Positions 2,790 through 58,559 of a stretch of DNA of 64,000 nucleotides are shown here, in pieces. Origin of the DNA: a virus. Every line of letters begins with the position of its first letter. Within the stretch, counting starts at the first letter, position 1. Position numbers and translations under genes: made by a program. The stretch spans positions 133,793-197,792 of IMG/VR virus record IMGVR_UViG_3300032401_000001, one strand, 5' to 3'. The notes below the pieces were generated by a model. It saw only the letters and a list, made by a program, of their open reading frames with translations, did not search any database and was not told the origin of the DNA.

Positions 2790-2804
2790 CTTTACCTCGT
2801 AAAG
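2790..2804. promoter_or_regulatory. Palindrome CTTTAC-CTC-GTAAAG (copy 1), overlapping the SD of the adaptor gene
   Basis: Minus strand CTTTACGAGGTAAAGTCATG; the GAGGT SD lies within the palindrome. Confidence 0.8.
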
Positions 2805-2806
2805 CG

Positions 2807-3274
2807 CTAGGTGATGCCCGAGTCGAGGCTGAGAATGATGCGTGCTACCATGGCGAGAGTACCGCCGCTGGTGACGATCTTGAGCTTGTCGCCGCGGAAC
2901 AGGTAGAAGCGTTCGTACTCCGTTCGCATGATGTACTGGCTGCTGCTGCCCGTGGCGACTTGAATTACATCGCCGGTACGGGTGACGATGGAGACGGTCC
3001 AGGTCACGGCGCTGCCGAAGTTGGCTGCGATGCCTTCGACGCAGACGGGGAAGGTCTGCTGCCACTCGAAGAGACCGCCCTTGTCGCCGGCGATCTTCGT
3101 GACGTCGTTCGCTTGTTTGTAGCGGGCGACGCAGTCTTCGGTATCGAAGTAGGGTGCGAATGCGACGCCAGCCAGTGACGGGGCTTCGCCGGTGAACTGG
3201 GAGCCCGCCTTGATGCGCTGTTCGAGGCAGGTGGCGACAGTCTGGATCTCGACAGCGTCTTTCTTGAACTCCAT
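2807..3274 (-). CDS. Hypothetical virion protein
   Basis: 155-aa ORF with phage-like codon usage and SD GGAGAAG. Confidence 0.6.
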   Translation of the reverse strand: MEFKKDAVEIQTVATCLEQRIKAGSQFTGEAPSLAGVAFAPYFDTEDCVARYKQANDVTKIAGDKGGLFEWQQTFPVCVEGIAANFGSAVTWTVSIVTRTGDVIQVATGSSSQYIMRTEYERFYLFRGDKLKIVTSGGTLAMVARIILSLDSGIT

Positions 3275-3288
3275 GAGTCTTCTCCGTC

Positions 3289-3855
3289 CTAGGGGACGAT
3301 CACCTGCTGCGTGTTGGGACCGAAGGCCCCCGGTTTGAAAAACTGGATCACGTAGGTGAAGCCCGCTTCGACTGTGATGGGTTGATTCCAGCGTCCGTCA
3401 GTACCGGTCGACGTGGTACCGACGGCGGCTGCGTAGTTGCCGAGGTCGAAGTCGATTTTCTTCCAGATGCGGATCTGAACTCCGACCAGTGGGTGATTGT
3501 CGGGGTCGATCGGCTGCAGTTCGTTTACCCCGCCGTAGTCCTGGTTGAGGACGACGGTGTTGGGAAATGGCGGTGGCGTGGTCGACTCGGAAGGTTGAAA
3601 CGGATCTGACCAGCCGCTCGGATTGCCGTCGGTGTCGACGGCGCGTTCGCGATACCACAGCGTGGTGCTGCCGGTGGCATCGACGTAGAAGAAGCGGTTC
3701 GAGGTTGGGTCGTAGTCCGGTCCTGGAATGACGTGCGCAATGCTGACCAGGTCGGTCCAGGTGCCGGGTACACCAGCAACGTCCGGTGCCCGCTGCCAGT
3801 CGTAGCGGGAGATGTCCGACTCGGTGTTCGGCAGCCAGGTCAGTCGGATGCTCAC
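3289..3855 (-). CDS. Virion protein with FN3/Ig-like domains
   Basis: N-terminal IRLTWLPNTESDISRY...LWYRERAVDTDGNPSGWS FN3-like pattern. Confidence 0.55.
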   Translation of the reverse strand: MSIRLTWLPNTESDISRYDWQRAPDVAGVPGTWTDLVSIAHVIPGPDYDPTSNRFFYVDATGSTTLWYRERAVDTDGNPSGWSDPFQPSESTTPPPFPNTVVLNQDYGGVNELQPIDPDNHPLVGVQIRIWKKIDFDLGNYAAAVGTTSTGTDGRWNQPITVEAGFTYVIQFFKPGAFGPNTQQVIVP

Positions 3856-4172
3856 GACGCATCACCTCGAGGATCACGCGGGGTTGCCGGCGGTTCGGTG
3901 CCGACGACTTCGCTTCCTTCTGTACCATGCGGCACAGTCGGCGGTTCAATTGTAGTGTCGATCCCCGTCGGACCACAAGGTACGTGCGGAGGTCCGGCGC
4001 CGCTGGCTTCCATGCCAATGGGGACGTGCGGCGGCACCGGTTCGGCGATGCCTTCTGGGGCGCAGGGGCGGTGCGGCAGAGGTCCGTAGTGCCCTTCAGG
4101 GTCGTCTGGGGCGCGGATTTCTTGGAGGTTGATGTACCCCAGCATGCCATCGGTGATGAGGGAGATGGTCAT
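3852..4172 (-). CDS. Pro-rich hypothetical protein
   Basis: Overlaps both neighbours by 4 nt; repeated PHxP.G.E units. Confidence 0.55.
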   Translation of the reverse strand: MTISLITDGMLGYINLQEIRAPDDPEGHYGPLPHRPCAPEGIAEPVPPHVPIGMEASGAGPPHVPCGPTGIDTTIEPPTVPHGTEGSEVVGTEPPATPRDPRGDAS

Positions 4173-4894: not shown

Positions 4895-4900
4895 GCGCCC

Positions 4901-5264: not shown

Positions 5265-5522
5265 CTACCCCTCTTTTCGTTTGATGCCAGCCAGGTCGCG
5301 TTCGACATCGTCGAGGTTGTGTTCGATGCCTTCGAGGGTACGGTTGAACTCGGTCATCGCCTTGGTCATGTCGGTGAAGAGATCGAAAGCTCGATCCGTG
5401 AGTTTCTCGCGGGCCTTGCGTTCGAAGTAGTAGAGCACCAGGAGGAGCGCCGCGATGAGTCCACCGACGGGACCAATCTTGTCGGCGAACTGCTTTACCA
5501 GGTAAAGGAAGAAGGATTCCAT
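5265..5522 (-). CDS. Holin-like membrane protein (single TMD plus coiled coil)
   Basis: 85 aa; hydrophobic IGPVGGLIAALLLVLYYF followed by a charged coiled-coil tail. Confidence 0.5.
   Translation of the reverse strand: MESFFLYLVKQFADKIGPVGGLIAALLLVLYYFERKAREKLTDRAFDLFTDMTKAMTEFNRTLEGIEHNLDDVERDLAGIKRKEG
5493..5507. promoter_or_regulatory. Palindrome CTTTAC-CAG-GTAAAG (copy 2)
   Basis: Lies in codons 6-10 of the holin-like gene and forces AT-rich codons CTT/GTA. Confidence 0.75.
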
Positions 5523-15902: not shown

Positions 15903-15917
15903 GTTTACCGCGTAAAG
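15903..15917. promoter_or_regulatory. Palindrome GTTTAC-CGC-GTAAAG (copy 3)
   Basis: Intergenic, upstream of the fibre-operon promoter. Confidence 0.8.
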
Positions 15918-18235: not shown

Positions 18236-18975
18236 CAGAACTCCACGTACTCGAAGAAACCGTAGGCAGTTGAGGCGGTCGCCGCGAAGGGGCGCTCCAC
18301 CAGCCACACGAAGTCGGGACCAGGGAGCGCCAGCGGGATCTTGAACTCGTGGTCGCAGTAGTTGGCAGCGGAATGTACGAACGTCGCTCCCAAGCCCTTC
18401 TGTGGCGAGTGGGTATCCAGTGGGTCGCCCGAGTGGTTGAAGGTGGCGGCGCCGCCTACGACTGAGCCCCCCGAAGTGATGCACAGCAGGTAGCAGGTCT
18501 TGCCCGACGGGACGTAGTGGTGTGCCCAATACGTCATGTTGTCGGAGGTGGCGATGCTACCCCACACCGAGCCCCCGCCACCGGTCTGGGTGTAGATGGA
18601 GATCGTACCCGCGTTGCCACCACCCTGGTTGCCGGTGACGATGACCTCCATCTTCTCCAGGAAGGCGATGTCGGTGGCTACGGTGTTGACGGCCGTGGTG
18701 CCGTTGAGGGTGATGTCTTCGGTCTTCAGCTCGTAGCTGGTGTTGAGGTAGGTGATCCGTACCTGCCGCGCTCCAGTTCCAGCGGCCGTGTCGTTGACGT
18801 TGCTGGACTTGATGGACCGCTGGGCGTTGGTCCCCTGGGGTGTGTAGGCAGTCGCTCTGATGGCGACGCCGCCTGTGCCAGAAGTACCGACGTAGCCGCC
18901 CCGCTGGTTGGCGATGTGATCCTGCATCATGCCCAGCGCTGCGGCCCACTCGAAGCTGTAGGTTGTGCCCGGCAT
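18235..18975 (-). CDS. Virion structural protein
   Basis: GAR.V.ITYL...E.ITLNGTTAV motif common in phage virion proteins. Confidence 0.6.
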   Translation of the reverse strand: MPGTTYSFEWAAALGMMQDHIANQRGGYVGTSGTGGVAIRATAYTPQGTNAQRSIKSSNVNDTAAGTGARQVRITYLNTSYELKTEDITLNGTTAVNTVATDIAFLEKMEVIVTGNQGGGNAGTISIYTQTGGGGSVWGSIATSDNMTYWAHHYVPSGKTCYLLCITSGGSVVGGAATFNHSGDPLDTHSPQKGLGATFVHSAANYCDHEFKIPLALPGPDFVWLVERPFAATASTAYGFFEYVEF

Positions 18976-20276
18976 CAGATCGCCTTGTCCCCGAAGAAGG
19001 TGGCGGCCAGATAGTTCACGCCCATCGCACCTAGTGTAAGGTCATCACGAATGGTGACCTTCACGAAGTCTGTGGTCCCAGTCTTGAGATAGAGCGAGCC
19101 CGGTGCGAAGCGGTATGAGGACACCATGACCACTGTGCTACCCGCCGAGTCTACGACCGGGACTTCACCAAACGTCCGCAGGAAGTCCTCGTTGATCTTG
19201 ATGTTGTTCAGCGTGATGTTCGTACCGTTGTTGATCCGCATCTCGACCAAGATGCCCGTGGTAAGTCCGGCAGCGGCATTCTTGCCAAAGCCGATGCCCG
19301 ACCAGTTGAAGCTGCCCGCCGAGAACACGAAGCGCAGCTCGTAGACCTCAATGTCCTTGGAAGCGTCGGCGTTGTAGGAGAAGACGACCGGCGTGACTGA
19401 GCCGTTCACCTTCATGTTGTAGGAGCCTCCGGAGGTCTTCAGGTAGTCGGTGGCCAGGTTGGCGACGTCCGATGAACCAACGATGTTGACCGGGATGGCA
19501 GTCTGGTCGTTGGCCATGGTCACGGGGATGGACGAGGCCATCCCCTTCTGGCCCACCGTCGGAGCGGTGCTCCCGATCCACTGGGCGATGTTCTCCTGTG
19601 GCCGACCTGCCGTGTCCAGCAGGATGATCCGCTTGAGCCCGCCCCCATCAACGCCCGAGATCGAAACCGGGTTGGAGCTTGGCGCTACCCCGGTCGCTGA
19701 CTTGCCCGCCACATACTGGTGGTTCTGTGCGTCCACTCCCGCAACGTTGGTGTCGTCAGTGATCTTGACCCGGCCGATGCGGTTGTCGCCCGTCGGCAGC
19801 GCGTCAGTGATCTTCTTGACGCCATCCGTGTTCTTGATGAGGGCGAGCGTGTCTTCGGTCGCCGGGTTGATGTAGCTCCCACTGGCGTTGATGAGCTTCG
19901 CCTGCTCCTGGAGCCGGTAGACCGAGCCGTCGAGGACTACGCTAACCGGGTTCCCACTAGCATCGTAGAGGACCGCCTTGACCTTCTGGTTGCCGTCGGC
20001 CTGGCGGGTGTAGATGGTGTCCAGTACCGAGTCGATGTCGGTGAGTTTGCCACTCTCCTTGGCCGGGTCGCTGGGGATGTTGTCCGTCTTGGTCTTGATG
20101 TCGGCCAGGTTGCCGCCGGTCTCCTTGGCCCCGGTGTAGAACGCCGAGCCGTCGTGGAGGCGGGTGGCAACCTTGAGCAGCTTGCTGCCCGCGTCGTCGA
20201 TGACGCCTATGATGTTGCCGCCCTCGTCGCAGAGGGCGAGCTGGCCACCTTGGACCTGTGTGATCGTCAGCGGCAT
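18975..20276 (-). CDS. Virion structural protein (beta-rich)
   Basis: 433 aa; MKVNGSVTPVVF...IxE.RF domain; MA.SIPVT.A.DQ motif. Confidence 0.6.
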   Translation of the reverse strand: MPLTITQVQGGQLALCDEGGNIIGVIDDAGSKLLKVATRLHDGSAFYTGAKETGGNLADIKTKTDNIPSDPAKESGKLTDIDSVLDTIYTRQADGNQKVKAVLYDASGNPVSVVLDGSVYRLQEQAKLINASGSYINPATEDTLALIKNTDGVKKITDALPTGDNRIGRVKITDDTNVAGVDAQNHQYVAGKSATGVAPSSNPVSISGVDGGGLKRIILLDTAGRPQENIAQWIGSTAPTVGQKGMASSIPVTMANDQTAIPVNIVGSSDVANLATDYLKTSGGSYNMKVNGSVTPVVFSYNADASKDIEVYELRFVFSAGSFNWSGIGFGKNAAAGLTTGILVEMRINNGTNITLNNIKINEDFLRTFGEVPVVDSAGSTVVMVSSYRFAPGSLYLKTGTTDFVKVTIRDDLTLGAMGVNYLAATFFGDKAI

Positions 20277-22822: not shown

Positions 22823-22877
22823 CTTCTATCTCCTCTCGTTGGTCATGAGCTTTGCCCCTGTCCTTGCTCGGGGGAGG

Positions 22878-23336: not shown

Positions 23337-23393
23337 GGTGTCCTCTGTGGTGTTAGGTGGTCAGTGCTGGGTCTGTGATTTCTCTGCGCTTTA

Positions 23394-23401
23394 AGTATAG
23401 G
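23394..23401 (-). promoter_or_regulatory. Putative late -10 element CCTATACT
   Basis: Intergenic, 57 nt upstream of the ATG at 23336. Confidence 0.6.
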
Positions 23402-23426
23402 AGATCCGCGTCGACTTTCGTAGTCG

Positions 23427-23840: not shown

Positions 23841-23862
23841 CGTCCGTCTCCGTCACAGCGTA

Positions 23863-24081: not shown

Positions 24082-24105
24082 GTCGTGTCCATGTTGATGG
24101 TCATG

Positions 24106-24120
24106 CTTTACGGCGTAAAG
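24106..24120. promoter_or_regulatory. Palindrome CTTTAC-GGC-GTAAAG (copy 4)
   Basis: Directly after the terminator U-tract and 25 nt before the ATG at 24081. Confidence 0.8.
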
Positions 24121-24156: not shown

Positions 24157-24181
24157 CTCGGTGGCGACTGGCGACAAAGCC

Positions 24182-28508: not shown

Positions 28509-30431
28509 CTATGGCGTCGGCCACAGCAACGCTCCCATGAGCGCTGCGGCCTTGTCCAGATCGATTTTCTCTTCGGTGATGCCGTCCGACGCGAGCTTGT
28601 CTTGTGCCGCCAAGACGTCGGCCAACGTCAGATGGGTGTACTGCAGCCCGAGTTGCGCCTGCTTCTGCAGGAAGAGGTGCGCCGGATGTTCCATGCTCGT
28701 GTCGCGGAGGGCACGCCGCACGCGTTGTGATCCCTGCTTCGTGAGTTGATGTTCGATACCGAGGGTATCCACGAGCGCCATGACGCTGCTTTGCTTCTCG
28801 GCGAACTCGGTGATGACGGGAACGCGTCGCCCACTGGTGGTCGTGTAGCTCGCCGGTTCCTGTAGGCCAGTCTGTCCCAGGTACAAGCCGGCACCAGCGA
28901 GGGGCAACGCCAGGGCCTTGCTGGGACCGGGAACGGACGTGAGTACCTTGCCCGCACCGGCCATGAGGGCACCGGCTCCGAGTAGCCGTTTCAAATGCGC
29001 CTCATCGAGTGCATTCTGCGCGTGGAACGCGGCACCACCGGTCGTCTGGTAAGTGACGCCGGTGGTAGGGTCCTCCACGTCGAGCAAGTCGGTCGTCGGT
29101 GGTGCGTCGTGGGGGATGAGTGCGCGCGGCCGGATGCGCCGCCACAGGTAATCGCCGACCGTGGCGCGTTTCTCGAGGATGGGCGCGAGCTGGGCGCTGA
29201 TCTTTGCGACTGCTTCGGGCTGGGCGTCCGTCAATGCCGGCGCCATGTCATCGACGAGCGAAGGGTGCTGTCCCAGGAGCTCGAAGACTTCGGCTTGCAA
29301 TGCGGCGGCGCGGTCAAGTACTCCGGTCGGGATCTGCACGCCGGGCGCGGCCTTGGCGAGGAACAGGCGCAGGAACTCGGGCGTCGTCAGCATGACGCCG
29401 CTGCGCGCCAGGGCGGCGAGAGCATCTGGTAGCCGATGCTGGGCCAGCGTGCTGATGTCGGCTGATCCCAGTTCGGGAGTACGATCGACGACGTCCGGCA
29501 GCGAGGTGTCGCGGTACTGCTGGATCAGTGAGGCTTCGGGCAGGGTACCCGTGCTGACGACGCTCGCCGGATAACCGCGCACGACCTTGTCGATGACGGC
29601 GAGTTTCTTCGCAGCGGCACTCTTGGCTTCCAACGAATCGACCAGCTCACCTAGTTCGCTCGAGGAGCGCAGTTCGTAGGTGCGTTCGGCGACCTTCTGC
29701 AGCAAGTAACCGGTACGATCCGCGGGACGAGTGACCCAGGAGCTGTCGAAGAAACGGGGGCTCGGATTGAGGGCACCGTAGCGGACCCCGGTCTGGGGGT
29801 TGAGCCAGTTCAGCTGGAACTTGAGGTGGTCGCAGTAGTGCTTCCGTGTGGGCGCCATGTTGCCGCACTCAGTGCAGACGTCGAACTGGATTCGGCAGCC
29901 CATGCTCTTCGCCGGGAACTCGTTGTCGGCGATCTGTTCGACGAGGTCGGGCGCCTTGGCGTTGTCGATGTCTTCGAGGACTTCGACCCGGTGCATGAAC
30001 GGGTTCCAGAAAGCCTTGAGGACGTTGCCGACGGCGCGGACCGGGTCACGATTGACGTGGTGGCGAAAGACGTGACCCTGCTCGTAGCTGTGGAAGTGGT
30101 GCTGGATGCACTCTGGTTCCATCACCCAGGAGTCACGACCGGGGCCGTTCGATCGACCGGGCTTGTAGGGGACTTCGTTGAAGCCGTCGGCGTTACGGTT
30201 CAGGCCGTAGAACTCGTAGCTGCCGAGTCCGATGACGAGCACCACGGTACGCCCGGGCGTGGGTTTGATGCTCTTGATGTACTCCAGCGCAGGGCTGGCA
30301 CAGGCTTCCTTGGTGAGCCGTTCCCAGGACGGTTTACCGCGTAAAGGGGACCACAGCAGGACGGTCTGGACCGTCGGTTCGCCGGTCTTCTCGAAGCGAT
30401 CATCGAGGAGGATGATCTTGCTACGCGACAC
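28509..30431 (-). CDS. Prohead (capsid maturation) serine protease with a long C-terminal extension
   Basis: HVFRHH...VG.V (His), SMGC..DVC..CG (Ser plus Zn insert), FFDSSWV..PAD (Asp); lies upstream of scaffold and MCP. Confidence 0.8.
   Translation of the reverse strand: MSRSKIILLDDRFEKTGEPTVQTVLLWSPLRGKPSWERLTKEACASPALEYIKSIKPTPGRTVVLVIGLGSYEFYGLNRNADGFNEVPYKPGRSNGPGRDSWVMEPECIQHHFHSYEQGHVFRHHVNRDPVRAVGNVLKAFWNPFMHRVEVLEDIDNAKAPDLVEQIADNEFPAKSMGCRIQFDVCTECGNMAPTRKHYCDHLKFQLNWLNPQTGVRYGALNPSPRFFDSSWVTRPADRTGYLLQKVAERTYELRSSSELGELVDSLEAKSAAAKKLAVIDKVVRGYPASVVSTGTLPEASLIQQYRDTSLPDVVDRTPELGSADISTLAQHRLPDALAALARSGVMLTTPEFLRLFLAKAAPGVQIPTGVLDRAAALQAEVFELLGQHPSLVDDMAPALTDAQPEAVAKISAQLAPILEKRATVGDYLWRRIRPRALIPHDAPPTTDLLDVEDPTTGVTYQTTGGAAFHAQNALDEAHLKRLLGAGALMAGAGKVLTSVPGPSKALALPLAGAGLYLGQTGLQEPASYTTTSGRRVPVITEFAEKQSSVMALVDTLGIEHQLTKQGSQRVRRALRDTSMEHPAHLFLQKQAQLGLQYTHLTLADVLAAQDKLASDGITEEKIDLDKAAALMGALLWPTP
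30332..30346. promoter_or_regulatory. Palindrome GTTTAC-CGC-GTAAAG (copy 5)
   Basis: Inside the 5' end of the protease gene; imposes a rare TTA codon. Confidence 0.75.
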
Positions 30432-37473: not shown

Positions 37474-38847
37474 CTACGCCGTGTGCCGGATGGCGCGGAT
37501 GCGGGAGAGCAGGTCGGAGCCTTCCTTCTTCTCCTCTTCCTTCTCCTTCTTCTCGTGCTCCTCGTGCTTCTCGTCCTTCTTGTCGCCGTTGTCGCCGTTC
37601 TTCTTGGCGTCGATCACGGCTTGAAGGGCGGGGGGCAGCTCGCCGGCCTGCTTCTGGTTGGACCGGGTACGATCCTGGCGGCCGGAGTTGCCCTGGTAGC
37701 GCCGCCGGCTGGAGACCGACGCGTGCTTCTCGGCGATCGCGAAGGCCTGGTCGTTCGTGGCCCCGGCTTCCTTGGCGATCACGCCAAGGTACTCGGTCCG
37801 CTCCACGTCGTTCATGCCGATCATGCGCCGCACATGGGCGATCTTGTCCTCGTCGGCGAGGGTCTTGGGCAGGAAGGCTGCGACCTCTTCGGCGGTCTTC
37901 TTGAAGAGCGTCAGGAAGGGGTCGGTCTCGCTGGTCTTGGAGTTCTCGACGATCGAGTTGGCGCTGCTGGGCGGCAGGGCGCCGGGCGGCGACTCGGCGG
38001 GCGCGTTCGGATGGGCTTGCTCGACGCCGACGTTGGCGCCGGTCGGCACCGTCAGGTCGGTCTCGCCCATGCCGGGACGGCCGAGGTGCGCGTAGCCCTC
38101 GGGCCGATTCCGCGCTTCCATCTGGGTCTCGGCGGCCGGCGCTTCGGCCATCGTGTTGCCCTTGTCGCCACCTTCGATGGTCGAGCCTTCGGCCTGCTTC
38201 TGCAGGGCGACGCGCTGGATGATCTCGCGCAGGCTGCCCATCTTCGATTGCTGGATGACGCTGTTGGAGCCGCTCGGGCTCTCCTTCGGGGCGGCGGGCT
38301 GGGGCTGCTCGTTGCCGATGATGCCCGTGCCGCGCCCGGCACCCGAGGCGGTGCCGCCGACGCCGGAGACGCCCATGTTGGCGTACTGCTCGGGCCGGTT
38401 CTTGTTCTCCATCTGGGCTTCGGCCTGGGCGGTGCCCGTCGGCGAGTTGCCCTTGTCGCCACCTTCGATGGTCGAACCCTCGGCGTGCTTGACCTCTTCC
38501 GCGGCCTTCATCATGCAGGCGTAGGCCTGGGTGCCGGCGCGTGTGTCGAGGTCCTGTGCCGCGGAGGTCTTGAGGGCGGCTTCCTCGGGCATCGGTGGGG
38601 CACCCTCGGGGGCCAGACCTTCGCCCTGCGTCTCGGACACCAGCTTGGTGGCCGCGTCGACGAGCGTGGCTGCGACGTCGGCGGCGGTCTCCGGGGACAC
38701 CGGTTCACCGGCGGGTTCGGCGGGCAGCTGGTCACCGACGGCATCGGCGATCTCGTCAGCGGCCTCCTTGACGGGGTAGCGGATGAGCCCCAGACGCACG
38801 AGCTCGTCGTTGACTCCTCGGACGTATGCGCGCTTGAACAGTGACAT
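37474..38847 (-). CDS. Repetitive internal head polyprotein (start MSLFKRAY)
   Basis: 97-aa duplication; more than ten K-x-[ASG] motifs; charged C-terminus; SD GGAGGAG. Confidence 0.7.
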   Translation of the reverse strand: MSLFKRAYVRGVNDELVRLGLIRYPVKEAADEIADAVGDQLPAEPAGEPVSPETAADVAATLVDAATKLVSETQGEGLAPEGAPPMPEEAALKTSAAQDLDTRAGTQAYACMMKAAEEVKHAEGSTIEGGDKGNSPTGTAQAEAQMENKNRPEQYANMGVSGVGGTASGAGRGTGIIGNEQPQPAAPKESPSGSNSVIQQSKMGSLREIIQRVALQKQAEGSTIEGGDKGNTMAEAPAAETQMEARNRPEGYAHLGRPGMGETDLTVPTGANVGVEQAHPNAPAESPPGALPPSSANSIVENSKTSETDPFLTLFKKTAEEVAAFLPKTLADEDKIAHVRRMIGMNDVERTEYLGVIAKEAGATNDQAFAIAEKHASVSSRRRYQGNSGRQDRTRSNQKQAGELPPALQAVIDAKKNGDNGDKKDEKHEEHEKKEKEEEKKEGSDLLSRIRAIRHTA

Positions 38848-45901: not shown

Positions 45902-48900
45902 TCAACCGATCTCTATCTCGGCGTTGAGCGCGATCTCACCACGACGATACGCGGCGAGCGCTTCGGCCTTGGTCTTGAAGCGGTACTTCTTGCCGTCCTT
46001 GGCGTTGCTGGCCAGATGCACGCCGACGATGGCTTCGTGCTGCGGGAAGACCAGCAGGTCGCTCTTGGTCTTGTCGCCGAAGAGCAGGTTGGACAGCAGC
46101 ATCGCTTTCACGTCTTTGACGGCGCCGGGCATGACCGGGACGTGGACGGTCAGCGTGTCGCCGTCGTAGTCGAGGTTGAGGCCCTTCTCGATGAACGGGT
46201 TGACGCGTAGCGTCTTGCCGGGCACGGGTACCGGGTAGGCGCCGATCATGCCGTAGCGGTGCAGCGTGGGGGCACGATTGACGATGAGGGGACGCTCCTG
46301 GGCTTCACGCAGCAGCGCTTCACGGGCCACCGGCATGTGGTCTTCGAGCGCCTTCTGTGCATCGACCGCGTGGTAGCCGTTCTGCACCAAGCGCCGGATG
46401 ACGTGTGGACCGTACATCGTCCACATCATGTCTTCGGGAATGCCGACCTCGTCCATGTTGAGGTTGAGGTCGGGGACCGCGGTACCGCGACCACTGACGT
46501 CCTGCGGGCGGTAAAGGACCTTGCCGTGGAAGAAGCCGCCTTTGGGGCTGCCTTGGCCGGCGATCGTCGTGATGAATCCCTTGGCGCCGCGACCCTGCAG
46601 CTGTGGGCTCATCGGGTCACCGAGACCGAAGACCGCCTTGGTGGCGTCGTAGAGATGCAGCCGCGCCTTGGCCACTTCTTCGGGTGGCAGCGAGTGCTTG
46701 GCTGCGGCCAGGTTCTCGTTGGCGAGCATCGCGTCGCGGTACAGGTAATTCGCGTCGGAGACTAGCAGGTCCTTGCGTCCGTGTGACGCCGGTAGGATCG
46801 GGCGCACCACCGGGGGCACGACGCCCAGCTTCGAGATGATGTAGGCCTGGTCCGGTGAGAGCTTCTCCCGTTGCAGCGCCAGGACGTTCTTCAGCTGTTT
46901 CAGGGCACCATCGAGGCGGGCGCCAGTGGCATCACGCACTTCACCACGCAGTTCGCGCTCGCGCTGATCGAGGTTGATGGTTGCCAGACGGCGGCGGACA
47001 CCGGCGCCGCCTTCACGCTCCAGCAAGTCGCGGAACTGTGCGACGGTGAGTCCCAGCAGGCGGCGTACCGGTTCTTCGAACGTCGGGTTCACCAACGGTT
47101 CATGCAGGTCGACGTGTGACCAGCGGGTGCCGTTGGTGCCGCCGGTGACCACCGGATCGAAGAGTCCGCCCTTCTCCGGGGAGAGGTCTTTCTCCTTCAC
47201 CATGAGCGGTCGGGCGATGGCGCCGGCGGAGAGCTTCTTCACGTCGGCATCGGTCAACGGACCGAGCGTCATCTGTTCGTTGCCCTTGTCGACCTTGATG
47301 CCGGCGCCGCGCAGCATCTCCAGGAACTTTTCACTGGTGAACGAAGTGCGGGCCGGCGGCAACGGCAGGCCCAGCTGGTAGGCGCGCCAGAACTCGTCGT
47401 TGCGTGACGACTTGAGGGTCATGGATTCGCGCAGCACGTTGCGGGCGTTGTGCGCCAGCAGGGCGTTGATCTCCATGCGTCCGAGGGCTTTCGCGCCGGT
47501 CGCACCGCCTTTGGCGGGCTGCAGGTTGGCGTCATAATCTTCGACGCCGCGCGCGCTGTAGTTCGTCTCGGTGCTCTTGAAGAGCTTGTAGATGTACTGC
47601 GGTCCGACCATCACACCCTTGCCATCGGGTCCTTTGATGGTCTTCCCGGTCATCGGGTTGTCGAGGATTTCCTTGTCGGTGAGGCCGTGTTCTTTGAGGA
47701 GTCCACGTGCCCACTTCACGTTGTTCTTGCCGCTGAACGACTCGATGACGATGGGCTTGCCAGTCTTCTCGGCGACTTTGGCGACTGCAGTTTCCAGGAT
47801 CTGTGCGGGATTGATGCGGCCATGCACTCCGGTGGGCGGCATGAGCAAGTCCAACGGACGCCCATCCAGGGTGTGCGGCATCTGGGCGATTGGCAGTACC
47901 TGAGAGACGACGCCTTTGCCGCCGTAGCGGTTCGAGATCTTGTCGCCAATCGCCGCGGGTTCACTGGTGCGGACCGTGAGCAGGATGCGCGACGGGGTCG
48001 CGACGACGTCGACGATTTCACCGGGACAGCGGTGTTCCCACGTCAACGCGATTTCACGGAAGGGCGTGTTCAACGTGCGGTGGAGCTTGCCGAGCATGCG
48101 CTGTTCGGCGGTGGGCAGCGCCTTGTGCAACCCGAGGATGAGTGGGTCGCCGGGCTGCAGCGTCTCCCCGGAACGAGCGACGCCGCGGCTGTCGAGGTGA
48201 GCGTACTGGACGGCGGTCCAGCGGCTGCCGAACATGGCGCGGTGCTTGTCGCGCTCGAGCACCGTGTCCAGGTCGAGCTGGAGCACTTCCTTGTACATAT
48301 GCTCGCTGGTCAACTTCTCGGCGGCTGCTTGTGAGATGACCACGGCGTCGTTGGTGTTGGCGCCGTAGTGGGGCAAATAGCCCACGCGGAGATTCGTGCC
48401 CAACGCTAGCCGGCCGTCCATGGTGACGTTCGAGTCGGTGAGGAGTTGTTCGGCGTCAACTTCGTCGCCGGCCTTCACCGTGACGTTGTTGTGCAGGAAG
48501 GTCTTGGACGACAGCGGGAAGTGGTCGTCGTAAGGGATCTTGATGATCGGCGCGGCGGCGGTCTTCTCACCGTCTTCGGCGAGATAGACATGCTCGACGG
48601 GCGCCATCTGCGGCCACTCGCTCGCCGCTTCGGCCTTCTTCTTGCTCTCGGGTCGCAGGTAGATGTAGTCCTGATCGACCTTGGTGATGGTGCCGGCCAC
48701 CGGGGCGTGCGGCACAATGAAGCGCGCGATCTCCTGCTCCATCGTACGGCGGGGATTGAACGACGCGACCTGCACCAACGGAGCTTCACGGTGCACCAGC
48801 GGAAGGGCCTGGCCGACGTGCTTGGCGCCCATCAGTAGACGGAAACCTTCGACGCTCTCCGGCATCGGGATGGTGTTGCTCGACAGCGAGAACATAAAGG

Positions 48901-50347
48901 ATGGATGGGGCAGATCGTAGTCGATCTCGCCGCGGCCGACCGAAACCGGCTGCCCGGCGCGCAGGGCCGAGACTCCGCGTTGCTGGTCACGTTGCCACGG
49001 CAACGCTACCGTGGCGTTCTCGACGTCCTGAACGGCGATGTCTTGGAGTTTGCCGGTTTTGGCGTTGCGCAACAACGTGTGCATCCGGCCCTGCTCGTCA
49101 CGCTTGAGCCAGAGCGCGGCGCGCAGGTCGACGCCGGCATGGAAGCTCTCGGGGGTACGCGCCGGGTCGATGAAACCGAAGTGCGTGTGGTGGAGGCTGC
49201 GCGCCTCGTTGGGGATAGCACGTTCGGATTCGATGCCGCCTTCGCCTAGCGTCGTGACCTTGGCTGCACTGTCGAGAATCTCGACGGGATTGATCTGCGT
49301 CGGGATCGAAGACAACGTGCTGTTGGTGATGAAGCTGCGGAGGGTTCGCGTAAACGGTGAGGGCGGGACGATGCGATCGAGGTCGAGGTTGCCCGAAGAC
49401 GCCTTCATACGCGCCTTCTTGGCCAGGTTGCGCCCCTCCAGCATGATGCGTTCCCGCACGAAGTCGTCGGCGCTCAGCAGTTGTTGGAAGGCGAGGCTGT
49501 CGCGGTCGTCGGTGTCGACGCCTTCACGGTGAACGTCGAGCAGCTTCTTCGAAGCTTTAACTAGGGCCGCCGGGGTCACGTGGGTGAAAGGTGTCCCCAG
49601 GGTTCGTGACGTGACATCGGGGTCCAGCACGGTGTTGTTGTAGCTCTCGTGGATGGCGTCGGCCTTGGCTTCCTGGGTATGGTGGGTGCGGCGGTACTCC
49701 GGCACCAGGCGCTCGTAGAGCTTATCCATCGCTTTGTCGGCCTTCGCCGGCGTACCAGAGAACATGCTGCGATTCTGGGCGACGACCCCGCTGCCCCAGG
49801 CGCGGTTGAGCTCGGTTTCGGGGACGCCGAGCTTGCGCAGGATGGGGTAGAGCGGGATGTTGGTCGTCCCGTATTGCATGTAGAGGTGACCCTTGGCGGG
49901 GTCCATGCTGAGACGGAAGTTGTCACCGCGGCCCAGGTTGAAGGCGGCTTCGAGTTCTTCGTTGCCCCGCACGCGGGTGTACACGCCGGGGCGGACCCGG
50001 CGTTGGTTCGCTACCGAGTACTCGTTGCCATCCACGATGAACGTGTGTCGGGGCGTGAACCACGGCAGCTGGGCCAACGTGATGTCGTCCTTGCGCTGGA
50101 CGGTCTTTCCCGCAGCGTCTTTGAGGACCAGGGATCCCTTGAGGGGTTCCTGCAGCGTGTGTCCCTGCAGCAGCGCGTCTTTCTGTTCGCGGGAGGAGTA
50201 TTCCTTCGAGACTACGTGTAGGTCTTCGACTTCGATGCGGTGATCCCGGAGAGCGAGCGGAAAGACGCGACGGACACCGTCGGTCGCTTTTTCGTGGATC
50301 TGGGTGCGACGTGTGGCGGCATCGATGAGAATTGGGGTCAGAGCCAT
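45902..50347 (-). CDS. rpoBC: Phage RNA polymerase: beta subunit fused to the N-terminal half of beta'
   Basis: beta motifs FIVDGNEY, LGEGG, TPES, GDKISNRYGGKGVVS, GRINPAQILE, GRMEINAL; then beta' motifs GLFDP, VPP..RP, GRG, NRAPTLHR, NLDYDGD. Confidence 0.97.
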   Translation of the reverse strand: MALTPILIDAATRRTQIHEKATDGVRRVFPLALRDHRIEVEDLHVVSKEYSSREQKDALLQGHTLQEPLKGSLVLKDAAGKTVQRKDDITLAQLPWFTPRHTFIVDGNEYSVANQRRVRPGVYTRVRGNEELEAAFNLGRGDNFRLSMDPAKGHLYMQYGTTNIPLYPILRKLGVPETELNRAWGSGVVAQNRSMFSGTPAKADKAMDKLYERLVPEYRRTHHTQEAKADAIHESYNNTVLDPDVTSRTLGTPFTHVTPAALVKASKKLLDVHREGVDTDDRDSLAFQQLLSADDFVRERIMLEGRNLAKKARMKASSGNLDLDRIVPPSPFTRTLRSFITNSTLSSIPTQINPVEILDSAAKVTTLGEGGIESERAIPNEARSLHHTHFGFIDPARTPESFHAGVDLRAALWLKRDEQGRMHTLLRNAKTGKLQDIAVQDVENATVALPWQRDQQRGVSALRAGQPVSVGRGEIDYDLPHPSFMFSLSSNTIPMPESVEGFRLLMGAKHVGQALPLVHREAPLVQVASFNPRRTMEQEIARFIVPHAPVAGTITKVDQDYIYLRPESKKKAEAASEWPQMAPVEHVYLAEDGEKTAAAPIIKIPYDDHFPLSSKTFLHNNVTVKAGDEVDAEQLLTDSNVTMDGRLALGTNLRVGYLPHYGANTNDAVVISQAAAEKLTSEHMYKEVLQLDLDTVLERDKHRAMFGSRWTAVQYAHLDSRGVARSGETLQPGDPLILGLHKALPTAEQRMLGKLHRTLNTPFREIALTWEHRCPGEIVDVVATPSRILLTVRTSEPAAIGDKISNRYGGKGVVSQVLPIAQMPHTLDGRPLDLLMPPTGVHGRINPAQILETAVAKVAEKTGKPIVIESFSGKNNVKWARGLLKEHGLTDKEILDNPMTGKTIKGPDGKGVMVGPQYIYKLFKSTETNYSARGVEDYDANLQPAKGGATGAKALGRMEINALLAHNARNVLRESMTLKSSRNDEFWRAYQLGLPLPPARTSFTSEKFLEMLRGAGIKVDKGNEQMTLGPLTDADVKKLSAGAIARPLMVKEKDLSPEKGGLFDPVVTGGTNGTRWSHVDLHEPLVNPTFEEPVRRLLGLTVAQFRDLLEREGGAGVRRRLATINLDQRERELRGEVRDATGARLDGALKQLKNVLALQREKLSPDQAYIISKLGVVPPVVRPILPASHGRKDLLVSDANYLYRDAMLANENLAAAKHSLPPEEVAKARLHLYDATKAVFGLGDPMSPQLQGRGAKGFITTIAGQGSPKGGFFHGKVLYRPQDVSGRGTAVPDLNLNMDEVGIPEDMMWTMYGPHVIRRLVQNGYHAVDAQKALEDHMPVAREALLREAQERPLIVNRAPTLHRYGMIGAYPVPVPGKTLRVNPFIEKGLNLDYDGDTLTVHVPVMPGAVKDVKAMLLSNLLFGDKTKSDLLVFPQHEAIVGVHLASNAKDGKKYRFKTKAEALAAYRRGEIALNAEIEIG

Positions 50348-51976: not shown

Positions 51977-51991
51977 CTTTACGCGGTAAAG
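51977..51991. promoter_or_regulatory. Palindrome CTTTAC-GCG-GTAAAG (copy 7)
   Basis: Between the portal stop and the next SD. Confidence 0.8.
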
Positions 51992-53734: not shown

Positions 53735-53739
53735 GCCAC

Positions 53740-54201: not shown

Positions 54202-56082
54202 ATGCCGGGACCAGTTTACGAGGTAAAGATTACGTCGCTCGGAGGAACGCCGGTCTTCGTGGTGGCTGCGGCAGACATCCGCTTCATGAAAGTGTTCGGG
54301 GCGCTGTGGCAGAATCAGATGTGGTACTACCCGGCGTTCCTGCCCGCCGCCGAGATCGTCCTCAAGGACATGCGCGCCTTGAAGCTACCGGTGGTCTTCT
54401 CGCCAGCGGCACAGCAAGCCATCACGACGCTACAACAGTTGCGAAAGCAACACGAAGATCAGGTGCTGCCAGACGGCTTCACGTTCAAGACGAAGCCCTA
54501 CCAGCACCAGCTGGATGGGTTGACTCACCTCATCTACTACTGGCGGGCGGCGCTGTTCTACGCCTGTGGCTTGGGCAAGACCAAGATCGTCATCGATTGG
54601 CAGCGCGCGGTGCGGTGCTGGCCGCTGGTGGTCTGCCCCAAGATTGTCGTCTCGGTCTGGGCACGCGAGCTGCAGGTTCACGGTATCAACCAGGAGTTCT
54701 GCATCATCGACGCGGAGACGCTGGTCGAGCGTGAGCAACAGCTGCTCAAGACGTCAGGCTACCAGGGTGTCGTGCTGTCCTACGACACCTTGGTGCGTTT
54801 CCCGGAAGTGATTGCGAAGCTGCCCTACACGGCGATGGTGGCCGACGAGTCGCACTACGTTAAGTCCCATGAAGCTACCCGCACCTTGACGATGCTGGAG
54901 CTGTCACAGAAGGCGGCGCGGCGCGTGATCATGTCGGGGACACCGTCGATGGGCGACCCGCGCGACATGTGGTCGCAGCTGCGCCTCCTCTCGCCGGCCT
55001 ACGCTGCGGAAGAGTTCTGGAAGTTCAAGCAGACCTACTGTGTCACAGCCAAGTCGAACAAGCACATCGTGGTGGGCTACAAGAACCTCGACGGGCTGCA
55101 CGCCCGTACCAGCCTGGTAGCACTGCGGCGCACCAAGGAAGCTTGCCTCGATCTGCCGAAGCAGGTGACCATCGACCGGACGGTGCAGTTGTACGGGCGC
55201 GCACGGACGCTCTACCGCGAACTGACGCTGTCCACGGAGTACCAGGATCTGCTTTCGCAGATCCAGAAGCAGCTGCTCATCGGAGCGGGGCGGCTACTCG
55301 ACATTCCGCACGTGGCAACGCTGCTCAACAAGTTGCTGCAGATCGCGGCGGGTTTCGTCTACGTACGCTCCGAGGCTGAGGCCCGGGCCTGCGATGACTG
55401 CGAATACCTGCACACCTGTGTGCAGGACAACATCAAGCCACATACCAGTCGCTGCGTGAAGCATCCGTCGCCCTCCCCGCGGCTGGTTGAGTTCTTCCCG
55501 GAGAACGCCAAGCTCGATGCGCTACGGGAACTTCTCGAGGAGATTCTCGAAGACACCGCTAACAAGGTCATCATCTGGGGGCAGTACGCGGCCGAGCTCG
55601 ACCTGATCGAGAAGCTGCTGGAGGATCAGCACCTCGGTCATGTTCGTGTCGATGGTAGTACCGGTGGTGGAACGGCGGCGCTGGCCGAGAAGTTCAACAC
55701 GGATCCGACGTGTCGGGTCTACCTCGGGCAGGTCTCGACGGGCGTCGGCATCACGCTGAACGCCGCCAACTACATGGTCTACTATACGTCGCCCTGGAAG
55801 CTAGGCGACTACGAGCAGTCGAAGGACCGCAATCACCGCCTAGGCCAGGAACGCGACACGACCATCTTTCGCTTGATCGCCGCCGGTACCATTGACGAAG
55901 CGGTACTCCGGGCACTGCGCACCAAGCACGATGTTTCGGAGGCGCTCATCGCGGCTATCACCTGCCCGGCCTGTGAGCACGCCGCATCCTGTCTGGTGCG
56001 CGACATCATGCCATTCGACGACGAGTGCATCTATCCTCGCGGGTTGGCTCGTCCGATAGCGAAAGCCTCACCGCTCACCTGA
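54202..56082 (+). CDS. SNF2-family (SF2) helicase/translocase
   Basis: PYQHQ, GLGKT, ADESH, SGTP, K..AL, STG.GITL..A, Q..DRNHRLGQ. Confidence 0.92.
   Translation: MPGPVYEVKITSLGGTPVFVVAAADIRFMKVFGALWQNQMWYYPAFLPAAEIVLKDMRALKLPVVFSPAAQQAITTLQQLRKQHEDQVLPDGFTFKTKPYQHQLDGLTHLIYYWRAALFYACGLGKTKIVIDWQRAVRCWPLVVCPKIVVSVWARELQVHGINQEFCIIDAETLVEREQQLLKTSGYQGVVLSYDTLVRFPEVIAKLPYTAMVADESHYVKSHEATRTLTMLELSQKAARRVIMSGTPSMGDPRDMWSQLRLLSPAYAAEEFWKFKQTYCVTAKSNKHIVVGYKNLDGLHARTSLVALRRTKEACLDLPKQVTIDRTVQLYGRARTLYRELTLSTEYQDLLSQIQKQLLIGAGRLLDIPHVATLLNKLLQIAAGFVYVRSEAEARACDDCEYLHTCVQDNIKPHTSRCVKHPSPSPRLVEFFPENAKLDALRELLEEILEDTANKVIIWGQYAAELDLIEKLLEDQHLGHVRVDGSTGGGTAALAEKFNTDPTCRVYLGQVSTGVGITLNAANYMVYYTSPWKLGDYEQSKDRNHRLGQERDTTIFRLIAAGTIDEAVLRALRTKHDVSEALIAAITCPACEHAASCLVRDIMPFDDECIYPRGLARPIAKASPLT
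54214..54228. promoter_or_regulatory. Palindrome GTTTAC-GAG-GTAAAG (copy 8)
   Basis: Codons 5-9 of the helicase gene. Confidence 0.75.
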
Positions 56083-56576: not shown

Positions 56577-56597
56577 TGCTGGTACAAGAGGAGTACC

Positions 56598-57566
56598 ATG
56601 GCCGATTCCGACAACCCCCTCGTCGAGGACTTCGAGCCCACGCCAGCGATGTTGGCGCAGCTCGACGCCTTCACCCAGGCGGCAGCGGCGTTGCCGAAGC
56701 CGCTACACCTCCCCAAGAAGGCGCTCTCCGCGACGCAGATCGATATGTATCTGCGCTGTCCGCGCCAGTACTACTTCCGCTACATCAAGGATACCGTTCG
56801 ACCGCCGGGCGTGGCGCTTACCTTGGGCAAGGGTACGCACAAGGCGCTGGAGACGACCCACCACGCCATCGTCGATACCGGTGTCCCGGCGTCTGAGTCA
56901 ATAGTCACGGCGGCTTTCTCCGACTCTTTCGACAAGGCCGTGGCGGAAGTTCCCAAGGAAGAATGGGAGAAGGACGCATCTACGCCCGGAGCAGTAAAGG
57001 ACGCCGGCCTGGCGCTCGTGCGGCTGTACAACCTCAAGTTCGCACCGCTGGTCCGGCCGCAGATCATCAAGACGGTGAACGGCGAAGTACGGGGCATCGA
57101 GAAGCAGTTCAGCATTCTCATCGCCGGAGTACCGGTCATCGGGTTCGTCGACCTGATCGACACCAATGACCCCACCATCGTGTCTTCGCCCAGCGAAGTG
57201 GTCGTCATGCGGCAGAAAGGCGTGACCATCCCCGAGGCGATGCGTACCGTCATCGTCGACTTCAAGACCAAGGCCAAGAGTTTCTCGCAGGGCGACGTCG
57301 ACGGGTCGTTGCAACTGACCATCTACTCCTATGCCGAGAAGATTCCGGCGGTCCGGTTCGACCAGCTGCTGCGGCAGAAGACCCCGACCCTCAAGCGCAT
57401 CAGCGCGCTGCGGACGCCGCAGGACTACCTTTGGCTGGAGGAGATCGTGCGGGGCGTCGCCGAGGCCATCAGCGCCGGCGTCTTCCCGCCGTGTGACCCA
57501 TCAGCCTGGGTGTGCAGCGAGAAGTGGTGCGGCTTCTGGCACCTCTGCCGCGGGAGGAAACGATGA
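56598..57566 (+). CDS. PD-(D/E)XK exonuclease (AddB/Cas4-like)
   Basis: LS.TQI..Y..CP.QY; G.VDLID; IVDFKT; Q...Y; C-terminal C...C..C...C cluster. Confidence 0.88.
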   Translation: MADSDNPLVEDFEPTPAMLAQLDAFTQAAAALPKPLHLPKKALSATQIDMYLRCPRQYYFRYIKDTVRPPGVALTLGKGTHKALETTHHAIVDTGVPASESIVTAAFSDSFDKAVAEVPKEEWEKDASTPGAVKDAGLALVRLYNLKFAPLVRPQIIKTVNGEVRGIEKQFSILIAGVPVIGFVDLIDTNDPTIVSSPSEVVVMRQKGVTIPEAMRTVIVDFKTKAKSFSQGDVDGSLQLTIYSYAEKIPAVRFDQLLRQKTPTLKRISALRTPQDYLWLEEIVRGVAEAISAGVFPPCDPSAWVCSEKWCGFWHLCRGRKR

Positions 57567-58303
57567 GCACGGGAATGTCCATCACCAACATCAAGGTCTT
57601 CGGCTTCGAACCTGCGCTGATCGACATGCGCAACCCGAAGGAGAGCTGGGACCTGAGCGACTCGAAGTTCTACAGCCTCTCGCCGTATCACGTCAGCGAG
57701 GCGGGCTACATACAGGAGTTCCCCCCGTGGGACCACATGCAACTCCGGGTGCCAGAGCTGCCGTTCATCGGTCCCGCGGATCTGAAGCTCGCCTGCAATC
57801 TCATCAAGGGCGGGGGTGCGCACCGCAAGTTCCTGCGTGAGATCTACGTCTGGTGGACCGTCACCATCCCGCGGTGCCTGTGGCAGGAACTCGACACGTA
57901 CAAGGTCAGCACAGTGCGCAACAGCTGTTCGACGATGCACAAGCTCGGCAGTCGCGAGCTGGTGCCGGCGGACTTCGCTGACGAGGACATCGAGCCGAGC
58001 GTGCTCTTCAAGCTCAACGACATGGGCGTGTGCTACCGCGGTAAGCATGCGTATGTCGAGGAACGCACAGGCAAGGTCTACGAAGGCGTGCCCCTGTTGC
58101 GCCACATGAAGCTGCAGTTGCCGGAGAGCTACTTGCAGCGGGCTGGCTACGTCTTCAACTACGAGTCGGCGCTCAAGATGTACTACGATCGCCACGATCA
58201 CCGCATGCTGGAGTGGTCCGGGGCCTACGGCATCTGCGCGCACATCCGCTGCTTGCCCTACATGAACGAGTTCATCGAAGCTGCGCAAACACAACGCGGC
58301 TGA
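57563..58303 (+). CDS. ThyX-like protein
   Basis: MRNP..SW..SDS, H.KFLR.I.V, W.ELDTY.V....NS.STMH phage ThyX-like pattern. Confidence 0.65.
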   Translation: MSTGMSITNIKVFGFEPALIDMRNPKESWDLSDSKFYSLSPYHVSEAGYIQEFPPWDHMQLRVPELPFIGPADLKLACNLIKGGGAHRKFLREIYVWWTVTIPRCLWQELDTYKVSTVRNSCSTMHKLGSRELVPADFADEDIEPSVLFKLNDMGVCYRGKHAYVEERTGKVYEGVPLLRHMKLQLPESYLQRAGYVFNYESALKMYYDRHDHRMLEWSGAYGICAHIRCLPYMNEFIEAAQTQRG

Positions 58304-58328
58304 TCTGTGGTATGAGAACGCGCTCTAC

Positions 58329-58544
58329 ATGTCGCCAGCACCGTACGTATCCGTGTCGTACACGCGGGAGCTACATCAGCGCCCTTCACCGCTGCGCCTC
58401 ATCTTCGATGAAGGCGGTTTCGGGGAAGCGGTGTGCCAGTGTGGCTGGCACTTCGCGTGGGACGTCGCAACACGGGAGAACATGATTTACGATGGTGATG
58501 GACGACCCCGGTTGTTTTGTCCGAACTGTCGGGCCATCGAGTAG
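58329..58544 (+). CDS. Small Zn-ribbon protein
   Basis: CQC...CPNC. Confidence 0.55.
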   Translation: MSPAPYVSVSYTRELHQRPSPLRLIFDEGGFGEAVCQCGWHFAWDVATRENMIYDGDGRPRLFCPNCRAIE

Positions 58545-58559
58545 CTTTACCAGGTAAAG
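58545..58559. promoter_or_regulatory. Palindrome CTTTAC-CAG-GTAAAG (copy 9)
   Basis: Starts immediately after a stop codon, 30 nt before the ATG at 58590. Confidence 0.8.

Follow-up and report, generated by a model that had tools for sequence, protein, structure and literature searches.

The window analyzed here is a stretch of 64,000 nucleotides (positions 133,793 to 197,792 of IMG/VR record IMGVR_UViG_3300032401_000001) that forms the last third of the 197,792-bp record of an uncultured phage, which has 63% GC, is rated complete by CheckV and is referred to below as G000. Dispersed along the window are copies of a short palindrome, TTTAC-N3-GTAAA, and close to its right end lies the gene for an orphan ParB protein. 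The palindrome occurs exactly nine times, at positions 2791, 5494, 15904, 24107, 30333, 41853, 51978, 54215 and 58546, and all of the 15-mers that an initial annotation of the window had listed between 2790 and 58545 were thereby recovered. The annotation had put the chance expectation at next to nothing, and 100 dinucleotide-preserving shuffles of the window indeed gave a mean of 0.00 matches; a search with the 15-mer that allowed two mismatches added one further match in the window, which is the chance level. The ParB gene to which the same annotation had pointed is likewise real, with matches to both the ParB_N and HTH_ParB families. The nine sites and the gene are:

2790..2804, CTTTAC-CTC-GTAAAG, in the 19-nt gap that separates two genes of the minus strand, 2 nt ahead of the ATG at 2787
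5493..5507, CTTTAC-CAG-GTAAAG, codons 6-10 (CTT, TAC, CTG, GTA, AAG) of the minus-strand open reading frame (ORF) 5265-5522
15903..15917, GTTTAC-CGC-GTAAAG, intergenic; the upstream gene stops 5 nt before it and the ATG at 15835 follows 68 nt after it
24106..24120, CTTTAC-GGC-GTAAAG, directly downstream (in the sense of minus-strand transcription) of a GC-rich hairpin and T-run; alternative ATGs adjoin it
30332..30346, GTTTAC-CGC-GTAAAG, 85 nt into the minus-strand gene 28509-30431 (640 codons), with the rare codons TTA and AAA
41852..41866, GTTTAC-CGC-GTAAAG, shares bases with the 3' end of the preceding gene; the ATG at 41831 follows 20 nt downstream
51977..51991, CTTTAC-GCG-GTAAAG, in intergenic DNA, with the ATG at 51957 following after 19 nt
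54214..54228, GTTTAC-GAG-GTAAAG, codons 5-9 (GTT, TAC, GAG, GTA, AAG) of an SNF2-type helicase gene, beside a divergent intergenic region
58545..58559, CTTTAC-CAG-GTAAAG, immediately behind a stop codon and 30 nt before the ATG at 58590
60161..61270, plus strand, orphan ParB of 369 amino acids (ParB_N PF02195, 2e-17; HTH_ParB PF17762, 3e-11), the proposed reader of the sites

Within one and the same gene array, parB follows the site at 58545 after 1.6 kb. Three of the positions recur in relatives of the phage that are introduced below, those at 2790 and 30332 in G001, G002, G003 and G007, and that at 24106 in G001 and G007.

Anatomy of the palindrome

The complete genome of G000 contains 23 perfect copies of (C/G)TTTAC-N3-GTAAA(G/C) and none of a reversed, non-complemented control pattern, and degenerate copies around the 23 perfect ones are almost absent. 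Among all 5-mer inverted repeats with spacers of 0 to 8, scanned in three complete genomes, this word is the sole large outlier, being over-represented 460-fold in G000 and 510-fold and 134-fold in two relatives. The outer T/A of the arms is invariant in 23/23 copies of G000, and the next base outward is always C or G (C in 37 half-sites, G in 9, A or T in 0), on either side of the site and in both orientations; the base adjoining the centre is G or C in 45 of the 46 half-sites, and the centre itself is free. The 3' base, which had at first been taken to be a fixed G, appeared so through a sampling accident of the window, as genome-wide both C and G occur on both sides. Since the outer C/G is found on either side and in both orientations, the site is symmetric, and the element is a 15-bp palindrome, (C/G)TTTAC-(G/C)N(G/C)-GTAAA(G/C). 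Its invariant arms, free centre, symmetric outer degeneracy and absence of compensation constitute the anatomy of a DNA site for a symmetric dimer.

Two elaborations of this description were tried and set aside. The spacer begins and ends with G or C, but the two bases are usually non-complementary, so that the spacer does not extend a stem, and the asymmetry of the outer base is found both ways inside one co-directional gene block, which leaves no rule of orientation relative to transcription.

Placement of the sites in the genome

All nine copies in the window lie within 100 nt of a predicted start codon: four are 1 to 31 nt upstream of one (2790, 41852, 51977 and 58545), the copy at 15903 is at 68 nt, and those at 5493, 30332 and 54214 are inside the 5' end of a gene, 12 to 85 nt from its start. 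Over the whole of G000, 15 of the 23 copies fall between -30 and +100 nt of a start, a zone that covers 16% of the genome (P 1.5e-7), and 11 are centred in the intergenic DNA that makes up 12% of it. Five copies are far from any start; exceptions to the association include a copy 1.9 kb into a 1,200-codon ORF, another 574 nt into a different ORF and one between two tRNA genes. The adjacency to start codons on which the initial annotation had laid weight is thus real in the window and in G000, but it fails as a general rule, since copies in the relatives are mostly within ORFs (18 of 28 in G007 and 15 of 21 in G022), often hundreds of bases from a start.

The annotation had further noted that copies within genes force the use of rare codons, and this is borne out by codon usage: in G000, TTA provides 0.5% of leucine codons, CTT 3.3% of leucine codons and GTA 7.3% of valine codons, while TTA, which is used in the coding copies of G007 and G022, provides 1.7% and 3.5% of the leucine codons there. 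The use of TTA (0.5-3.5% of leucine codons), GTA and AAA in the coding copies shows that the word is under selection as DNA. An effect of this cost is the best reading of the link to start codons in G000: an AT-rich word is expensive inside genes at 63% GC and settles in the short intergenic gaps, and therefore beside starts. An association with start codons in one GC-rich genome should consequently not be read, in annotation, as a translational or promoter signal.

The copies are not scattered at random over the genome. The gaps between the 23 sites of G000 range from 2.2 to 13.7 kb and have a coefficient of variation (CV) of 0.39, whereas sites placed at random give 0.94; such evenness was reached in none of 20,000 simulations (P<5e-5), and the result was the same with sites drawn only from gene starts. 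The spacing is also more even than random in two relatives, G007 (CV 0.63, P 0.0075) and G022 (CV 0.65, P 0.035). Even spacing, together with a word that is forced into coding DNA at the price of the rarest codons, argues for a function that is genome-wide and not gene-specific.

Conservation of the word and turnover of its positions

A search for the ParB locus with a single sequence reached only near-identical contigs, and a profile search was used instead. The relatives G001, G002, G003 and G004 come from such profile-based locus searches, and G007 and G022 from a scan of the collection with the exact 15-mer CTTTACCGCGTAAAG, which returned mostly single chance matches plus these two further complete, array-bearing phages. 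A 20-kb megablast query against cultured phages gave no match. Copies of the word in the relatives number as follows:

G001, 130 kb, 16 copies
G002, 69 kb, 6 copies
G003, 86 kb, 17 copies
G004, 31 kb, 5 copies
G007, 180 kb, complete, 28 copies
G022, 179 kb, complete, 21 copies

The reversed control pattern was found 0 times in each of these six genomes. In G022 there are, in addition, 37 copies with one mismatch, most of which differ at the outermost base, as compared with 0-8 for eight control palindromes. The scan of the whole genome and of relatives that had been proposed as a check on the motif thus yields 23 copies in G000 and a word that is conserved in its relatives, among them phages whose ParB is only 28-44% identical, and an array that is kept in phages from 51% to 63% GC.

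The places of the sites are less durable than the word. By orthologous-gene mapping, the sites that coincide with sites of G000 are 16 of 16 in G001, which is 92% identical to G000, 3 of 6 in G002, 4 of 17 in G003, 4 of 23 in G007 and 0 of 14 in G022. As the sites change place from genome to genome, with the word and its evenness retained, it is the word, its density and its spacing that are under selection, and not the individual positions or the link to start codons.

These properties bear on one of the options that had been raised for the window, namely that the word acts as an RNA hairpin in the transcript and serves a translational repressor or a nuclease next to ribosome-binding sites. 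A stem of 6 bp with a loop of 3 nt can be drawn, many of the G000 copies stand 10-40 nt before a start, and one loop holds the Shine-Dalgarno sequence GAGG. The fold is, however, weak: the best value is -2.0 kcal/mol, nine copies with an uncompensated G.G or C.C outer pair reach only -0.1 to -0.2, and the stem is invariant across phages of 30-50% protein identity while the loop is free, which is the reverse of what is expected of RNA selected for its structure. Copies deep in ORFs and between tRNA genes are also difficult to accommodate, and there is no RNA rationale for even spacing. We consider a role of the word as an RNA structure to be very improbable.

The ParB protein

The predicted ParB consists of a disordered N-terminus rich in Lys, Glu and Pro, a ParB_N domain, a helix-turn-helix (HTH) domain, a linker with a GRP (AT-hook-like) motif and a clade-specific C-terminal domain of three helices. 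Its homologues form a tight phage clade of proteins of ~365 amino acids, well apart from chromosomal ParBs. Fifteen members of the clade have an invariant LIAGERRLRAA box and an invariant E162-N163 (EN box), and the clade likewise shares the helix residues S214-Q215, within a recognition helix that reads T-E-G-Y-I-S-Q-R-L in G000, and the G-R of the linker motif. The ParB profile aligns to structures of Noc, Spo0J and ParB at 1e-27 to 1e-35, with Noc as the best match (7nfu, 4e-35), and to KorB structures at 1.6e-12. In an AlphaFold2 model the confidence score (pLDDT) is ~90 over residues 70-280; the N-terminus is disordered, the linker is of low confidence, and the three-helix C-terminal domain, which is conserved in the clade, is predicted with moderate confidence.

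There are no signs of a partition partner or of a conventional partition site. The complete G000 genome has no match to the ParA families PF13614 or PF01656, searches for which were positive in 14/14 control genomes, and the strict LG[KR]GL motif (as defined in PMC12704722) is not present in the phage ParB clade, some members of which have a partial NGK(G/S). Neither the canonical parS, TGTTNCACGTGNAACA, with up to 2 mismatches, nor the Noc-binding site (NBS) was found in G000 or G007, so that ParB has no other candidate site there. A scan of bacterial genomes for prophage copies or a host gave, among the best 80 of 583 matches, chromosomal ParBs throughout and no full-length relative of the clade.

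Within residues 1-70 of the protein (window 60161-60370), most of the long clade members have a recurrent N-G-K-(G/S) peptide that loosely resembles the ParA-binding motif LG[KR]GL; it is absent from the shorter ParBs of G003, G007 and G022.

Distribution of the word and of its candidate readers

The phage has its own RNA polymerase, which makes a phage promoter a serious rival reading of the word. The transcription genes concerned are:

window 45902-50347, minus strand, fused RNA polymerase of 1481 amino acids, containing beta (Rpb2 domains 3 and 6) and the N-terminal half of beta' (Rpb1 domains 1 and 2)
window 61267-62244, minus strand, sigma70-like protein (region 4 at 3e-13, and region 2), convergent with and abutting parB
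G000 37834-38547, minus strand, second sigma70-like protein (region 3 match)

The fused polymerase is the only such gene in G000 and is situated within the block of virion genes. As the first five relatives all have both ParB and this polymerase, they do not separate the two hypotheses, and 16 large relatives were added with a profile built on the conserved major head protein (identified through a weak PHROG match). Arrays are present in 3 of these 16, with 8 copies in G043, 17 in G044 and 12 in G058; the other 13, among them three complete genomes and a fourth of 94% completeness, have 0-1 copies. These motif-less genomes retain the fused RNA polymerase with 48-55% identity, a divergence equal to that seen in the motif-bearing G022 and G058, and they keep the sigma-like gene that adjoins parB; in fact both sigma70-like proteins are conserved even in the motif-less sister clades. 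Retention of the polymerase and the sigma-like gene without the word separates the word from the transcription machinery.

That the word might nonetheless be a promoter or terminator for the fused polymerase or a sigma-like factor, perhaps in the manner of the DNA hairpins of N4 (with a 6-bp stem and 3-nt loop), draws on the presence of these three genes, on two copies that directly follow a terminator-like hairpin ahead of a gene (G000 24617 and 157899) and on a crude k-mer screen that gave no other shared intergenic word. Besides the near absence of the word from polymerase-bearing sister clades, this idea has to contend with the location of most G007 and G022 copies inside ORFs, with a symmetric site that lacks a conserved flank to give direction, and with copies that stand 1-2 nt from an ATG, contain a Shine-Dalgarno sequence or, in one case, separate two tRNA genes. 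The stem and loop sizes would suit an N4-type promoter (5-7-bp stem, 3-nt loop), but the polymerase, being of the multisubunit-type fused kind, does not. A transcription signal therefore appears to us highly unlikely.

The ParB gene has a different distribution from that of the polymerase. The ParB profile matches G044 and G058; G057, with an 18-bit match, is the only motif-less genome that it hits. In every array genome listed here, G000, G001, G002, G003, G007, G022, G044 and G058, ParB has the recognition helix G-x-[IV]-S-Q-x-L, and an array is present in every genome whose ParB has this helix. The Q of the helix aligns to N178 of ParB and Noc, a conserved DNA-contacting residue of these proteins (PMC7383237). 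Two motif-less genomes, G049 and G055, were found by a Pfam search to have a very diverged ParB_N protein (21-24% identity) at the syntenic place beside the sigma-like gene:

L375:745-1740 (G049) and L376:640-1824 (G055), minus strand, diverged ParB_N proteins with a GFRR box, a helix S-W-V-S-Y-H and a canonical C-terminal AT-hook, RGRPRK

No dispersed palindrome was found in the genomes of G049 and G055. An alternative site in G049, TCGTC-N3-GACGA, was rejected as a compositional word that is present in all genomes. The ParB_N domain has no match in G048, G057 or G045, and G057 encodes a remote ParB-like protein of 348 amino acids.

These distributions also speak to the possibility, raised in the initial annotation, of a LexA box of the Bdellovibrio type, TTAC-N3-GTAA, through which the SOS response of the host would be coupled to the phage. 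The core does equal the published LexA motif of Bdellovibrio bacteriovorus (PMC8565304), but a coupling to the host is not favoured. The conserved word is longer than the LexA core, its 21-28 evenly spaced copies per genome, many of them in ORFs and one in G000 between tRNA genes, are unlike the layout of an SOS regulon, and phages ranging from 51% to 63% GC are unlikely to share one host LexA specificity. The array is, furthermore, missing from sister phages of similar GC content (G057 with 59%, G048 with 65.5%) and its presence tracks a phage gene. We find a LexA box barely credible as the explanation.

A phage-encoded regulator other than ParB has to be considered more seriously. Genes of G000 that are common to G007 and G022 and undetectable in the four motif-less genomes that are complete or 94% complete are:

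G000 21582-24311, plus strand, class II (B12-dependent) ribonucleotide reductase
G000 121073-121771, G000 125191-126024, window 2807-3274 and window 24182-24664, four small proteins without a family match

ParB was left out of this screen solely because of the weak match in G057, and it is the sole gene with a DNA-binding domain among those whose phyletic pattern is like that of the array. The word could, on this alternative, be the operator of another dimeric DNA-binding protein of the phage that represses or activates genes globally, much as dispersed sites are used in phiC31 (CIR sites) or L5 (stoperators), with ParB sharing the clade distribution by chance. The L5 and phiC31 genomes each have 20-30 occurrences of one short word, for the most part in narrow gaps between genes, to which a single phage protein binds; stoperators are asymmetric, oriented with transcription and bound by the prophage repressor. 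The recurrence of a short word across a phage genome is common to these systems and to the array, the palindromic anatomy would suit any symmetric dimer, the proximity to starts is strong in G000, and the four small proteins have the appropriate phyletic pattern; the co-occurrence with ParB, for its part, rests on 1-2 events. The phage word differs from the L5 and phiC31 sites in being symmetric, evenly spaced, located in ORFs of the relatives and associated with the ParB gene. Turnover of positions and copies that are mostly within ORFs in relatives are unlike gene-specific operators, of which even spacing would not be expected either. The four small proteins have no detected DNA-binding domain and belong to the structural gene block, where a failure to detect homologues may mean only that they evolve fast, and ParB is the sole recognizable reader of a palindrome with the right distribution, its helix being conserved exactly where the word is. 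An operator for another regulator thus seems unlikely.

A dispersed array of putative ParB loading sites

We propose that the palindrome is the cognate site of the phage's own orphan ParB and that its copies form an array of clamp-loading sites of the kind used by Noc and KorB, a reading to which we give a probability of roughly 0.6 on the strength of the sequence comparisons described above. Of the four options in the initial annotation (an operator for a dimeric regulator, a dispersed ParB/Noc-type loading site, an RNA hairpin and a host LexA box), it is the second that the tests favour. A possible mechanism can be outlined by analogy with ParB, Noc and KorB (PMC11790492; bioRxiv 10.1101/2021.02.11.430593). 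A ParB dimer would read the two TTTAC half-sites through its HTH domains, cytidine triphosphate (CTP) bound at the N-terminal domain with the conserved GERR box would close the dimer into a clamp, and the closed clamp would leave the site and slide onto the flanking DNA. With sites no more than 13.7 kb apart, loaded clamps could reach the whole of the 198-kb genome, and the array might then function as a genome-wide loading grid, like the NBS of Noc or the OB of KorB, and not as a single centromere. Bound or sliding ParB next to starts could also dampen or time expression, as KorB does. Candidate purposes of the array would be organization, timed silencing, protection or tethering of the genome, and the phage would be paying, in rare codons, to keep its entire genome within reach of a loading site.

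Several observations weigh against this proposal. The word's presence and absence require only one or two changes on the head-protein tree, which has four clades, so that the co-occurrence with ParB is close to a single evolutionary observation, which would hold equally for any gene specific to the clade. The four small proteins mentioned above, which share the phyletic pattern of the array, could be the binders. The fragment G043, which is 49% complete, has 8 copies and no ParB gene on its contig, while G048, with no detectable ParB, has six copies of a relaxed word, GTTTAY-N3-RTAAAC, where ~0 are expected, and G057 has two:

G048 at 12629, 18091, 61954, 136489, 137665 and 173260; G057 at 1606 and 6034, relaxed word GTTTAY-N3-RTAAAC

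These relaxed copies may be relics or may have a reader that escaped detection. In G000 the preference for gene starts (15 of 23, P 1.5e-7) is strong enough to allow for a local regulatory role, and a secondary use of start-proximal copies in local regulation is compatible with the data. The C-terminal family PF23552 of chromosomal ParBs in Pfam is missing from the phage clade. Binding of CTP by the phage protein is assumed from its motifs, and ATP or GTP might serve as well, as some ParB folds bind one or the other (PMC12704722). The comparative evidence is, then, consistent and specific, but it does not comprise many independent events.

More tentatively, and with greater doubt than attaches to the ParB proposal itself, it might be imagined that in this lineage of ~180-200-kb phages an orphan ParB clamp, loaded from an even grid with one site per 3-9 kb, coats or folds the whole genome during infection and provides, without ParA, a chromatin-like layer that organizes the DNA, silences it in a timed manner or shields it, and that the sister clades have lost both ParB and grid.

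The proposal amounts to a concrete and testable pair of one ParB and one 15-bp word, for which nature supplies a comparison series in the relatives that have the pair, those with an altered recognition helix and no sites, and those without detectable ParB. Recent surveys list many orphan phage ParBs that lack assigned sites or functions (PMC12704722), and a ParB devoid of a DNA-binding domain activates a phage thymine dioxygenase (PMC13229309). In a limited library of literature, we found no paper in which orphan phage ParBs are given DNA sites or a role, and none that describes an even, genome-tiling grid of sites in large phages. Dispersed sets of sites for ParB-family proteins are already known from Noc, from KorB and, on a small scale, from the IR1-4 sites of N15 (PMC7205306).

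Comparison with known ParB-family systems

Noc of Bacillus subtilis, a nucleoid-occlusion factor, is a ParB-family CTPase with NBS sites (PMC7383237, bioRxiv 10.1101/2021.02.11.430593). The phage system resembles it in having an orphan ParB paralogue with no ParA partner and a short palindrome with T-rich and A-rich outer arms, whose copies are scattered over the replicon and not clustered at a centromere; Noc structures are also the best sequence match of the phage ParB profile, as given above. It differs in that the NBS (ATTTCCCGGGAAAT core) is absent from the phage and the helix has S-Q in place of the A-N of ParB and Noc. The phage ParB has E/Q at position 173, misses the Noc lysines and is without the Q/K/K/R specificity set of Noc, and its N-terminus, a long disordered tract of Lys, Glu and Pro, shows no evident membrane-targeting helix. 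The replicon, moreover, is a large phage.

KorB of the IncP plasmid RK2 is a CTP clamp that is loaded at OB operators and brings about long-range silencing (PMC11790492). Its operators are copies of a 13-bp, odd-centred palindrome that are spread along a mobile replicon, both at promoters and at a distance from them, and in this they resemble the phage sites; OB, TTTAGCGGCTAAA, also shares with the phage word the frame TTTA-N5-TAAA (PMC11790492). The inner two bases of each arm differ (AGC vs ACG/ACC), the phage ParB has far closer matches in Noc and Spo0J (4e-35, against 1.6e-12 for KorB), no gene for a ParA (IncC) was found in the phage, and the phage sites are evenly spaced and, in the relatives, often in coding sequence. 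A search of the phage for OB, TTTAGCSGCTAAA, found none, the matches with 2 mismatches being the phage word itself or stray single sequences.

The ParABS systems, in which ParB binds a centromere, such as P1 parS and SopB of N15, whose IR1-4 constitute several separate ParB sites in a phage genome (PMC7205306), have a protein of the same family, with ParB_N and HTH domains, and a palindromic site. The phage lacks the ParA gene and the strict LG[KR]GL motif of these systems, and it has 21-28 evenly spaced sites as opposed to one cluster or four.

Additional features of the genome

A layout of terminator, site and gene, in which a hairpin and T-run end at the site and a gene start follows, is seen at 2 of the 23 copies:

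window 24121-24165 and G000 24560-24615, GC hairpins with T-runs that resemble intrinsic terminators, next to the sites at G000 157899 and 24617, respectively

A second, separate promoter word was also looked for and not obtained, as the intergenic k-mer screen, whose set was contaminated by uncalled genes and RNA regions, gave only the palindrome. The site at G000 19813 lies 12 nt upstream of the start of a gene (G000 18791-19801, minus strand) for a core protein of 336 amino acids with a weak, below-threshold match to KfrA_N (22 bits); KfrA is a DNA-binding protein of the kor regulon of RK2. The polymerase genes of G045-G047, G056 and G044 contain inserts of ~1 kb and have open frames of 1815-2140 amino acids; the inserts are possibly inteins.

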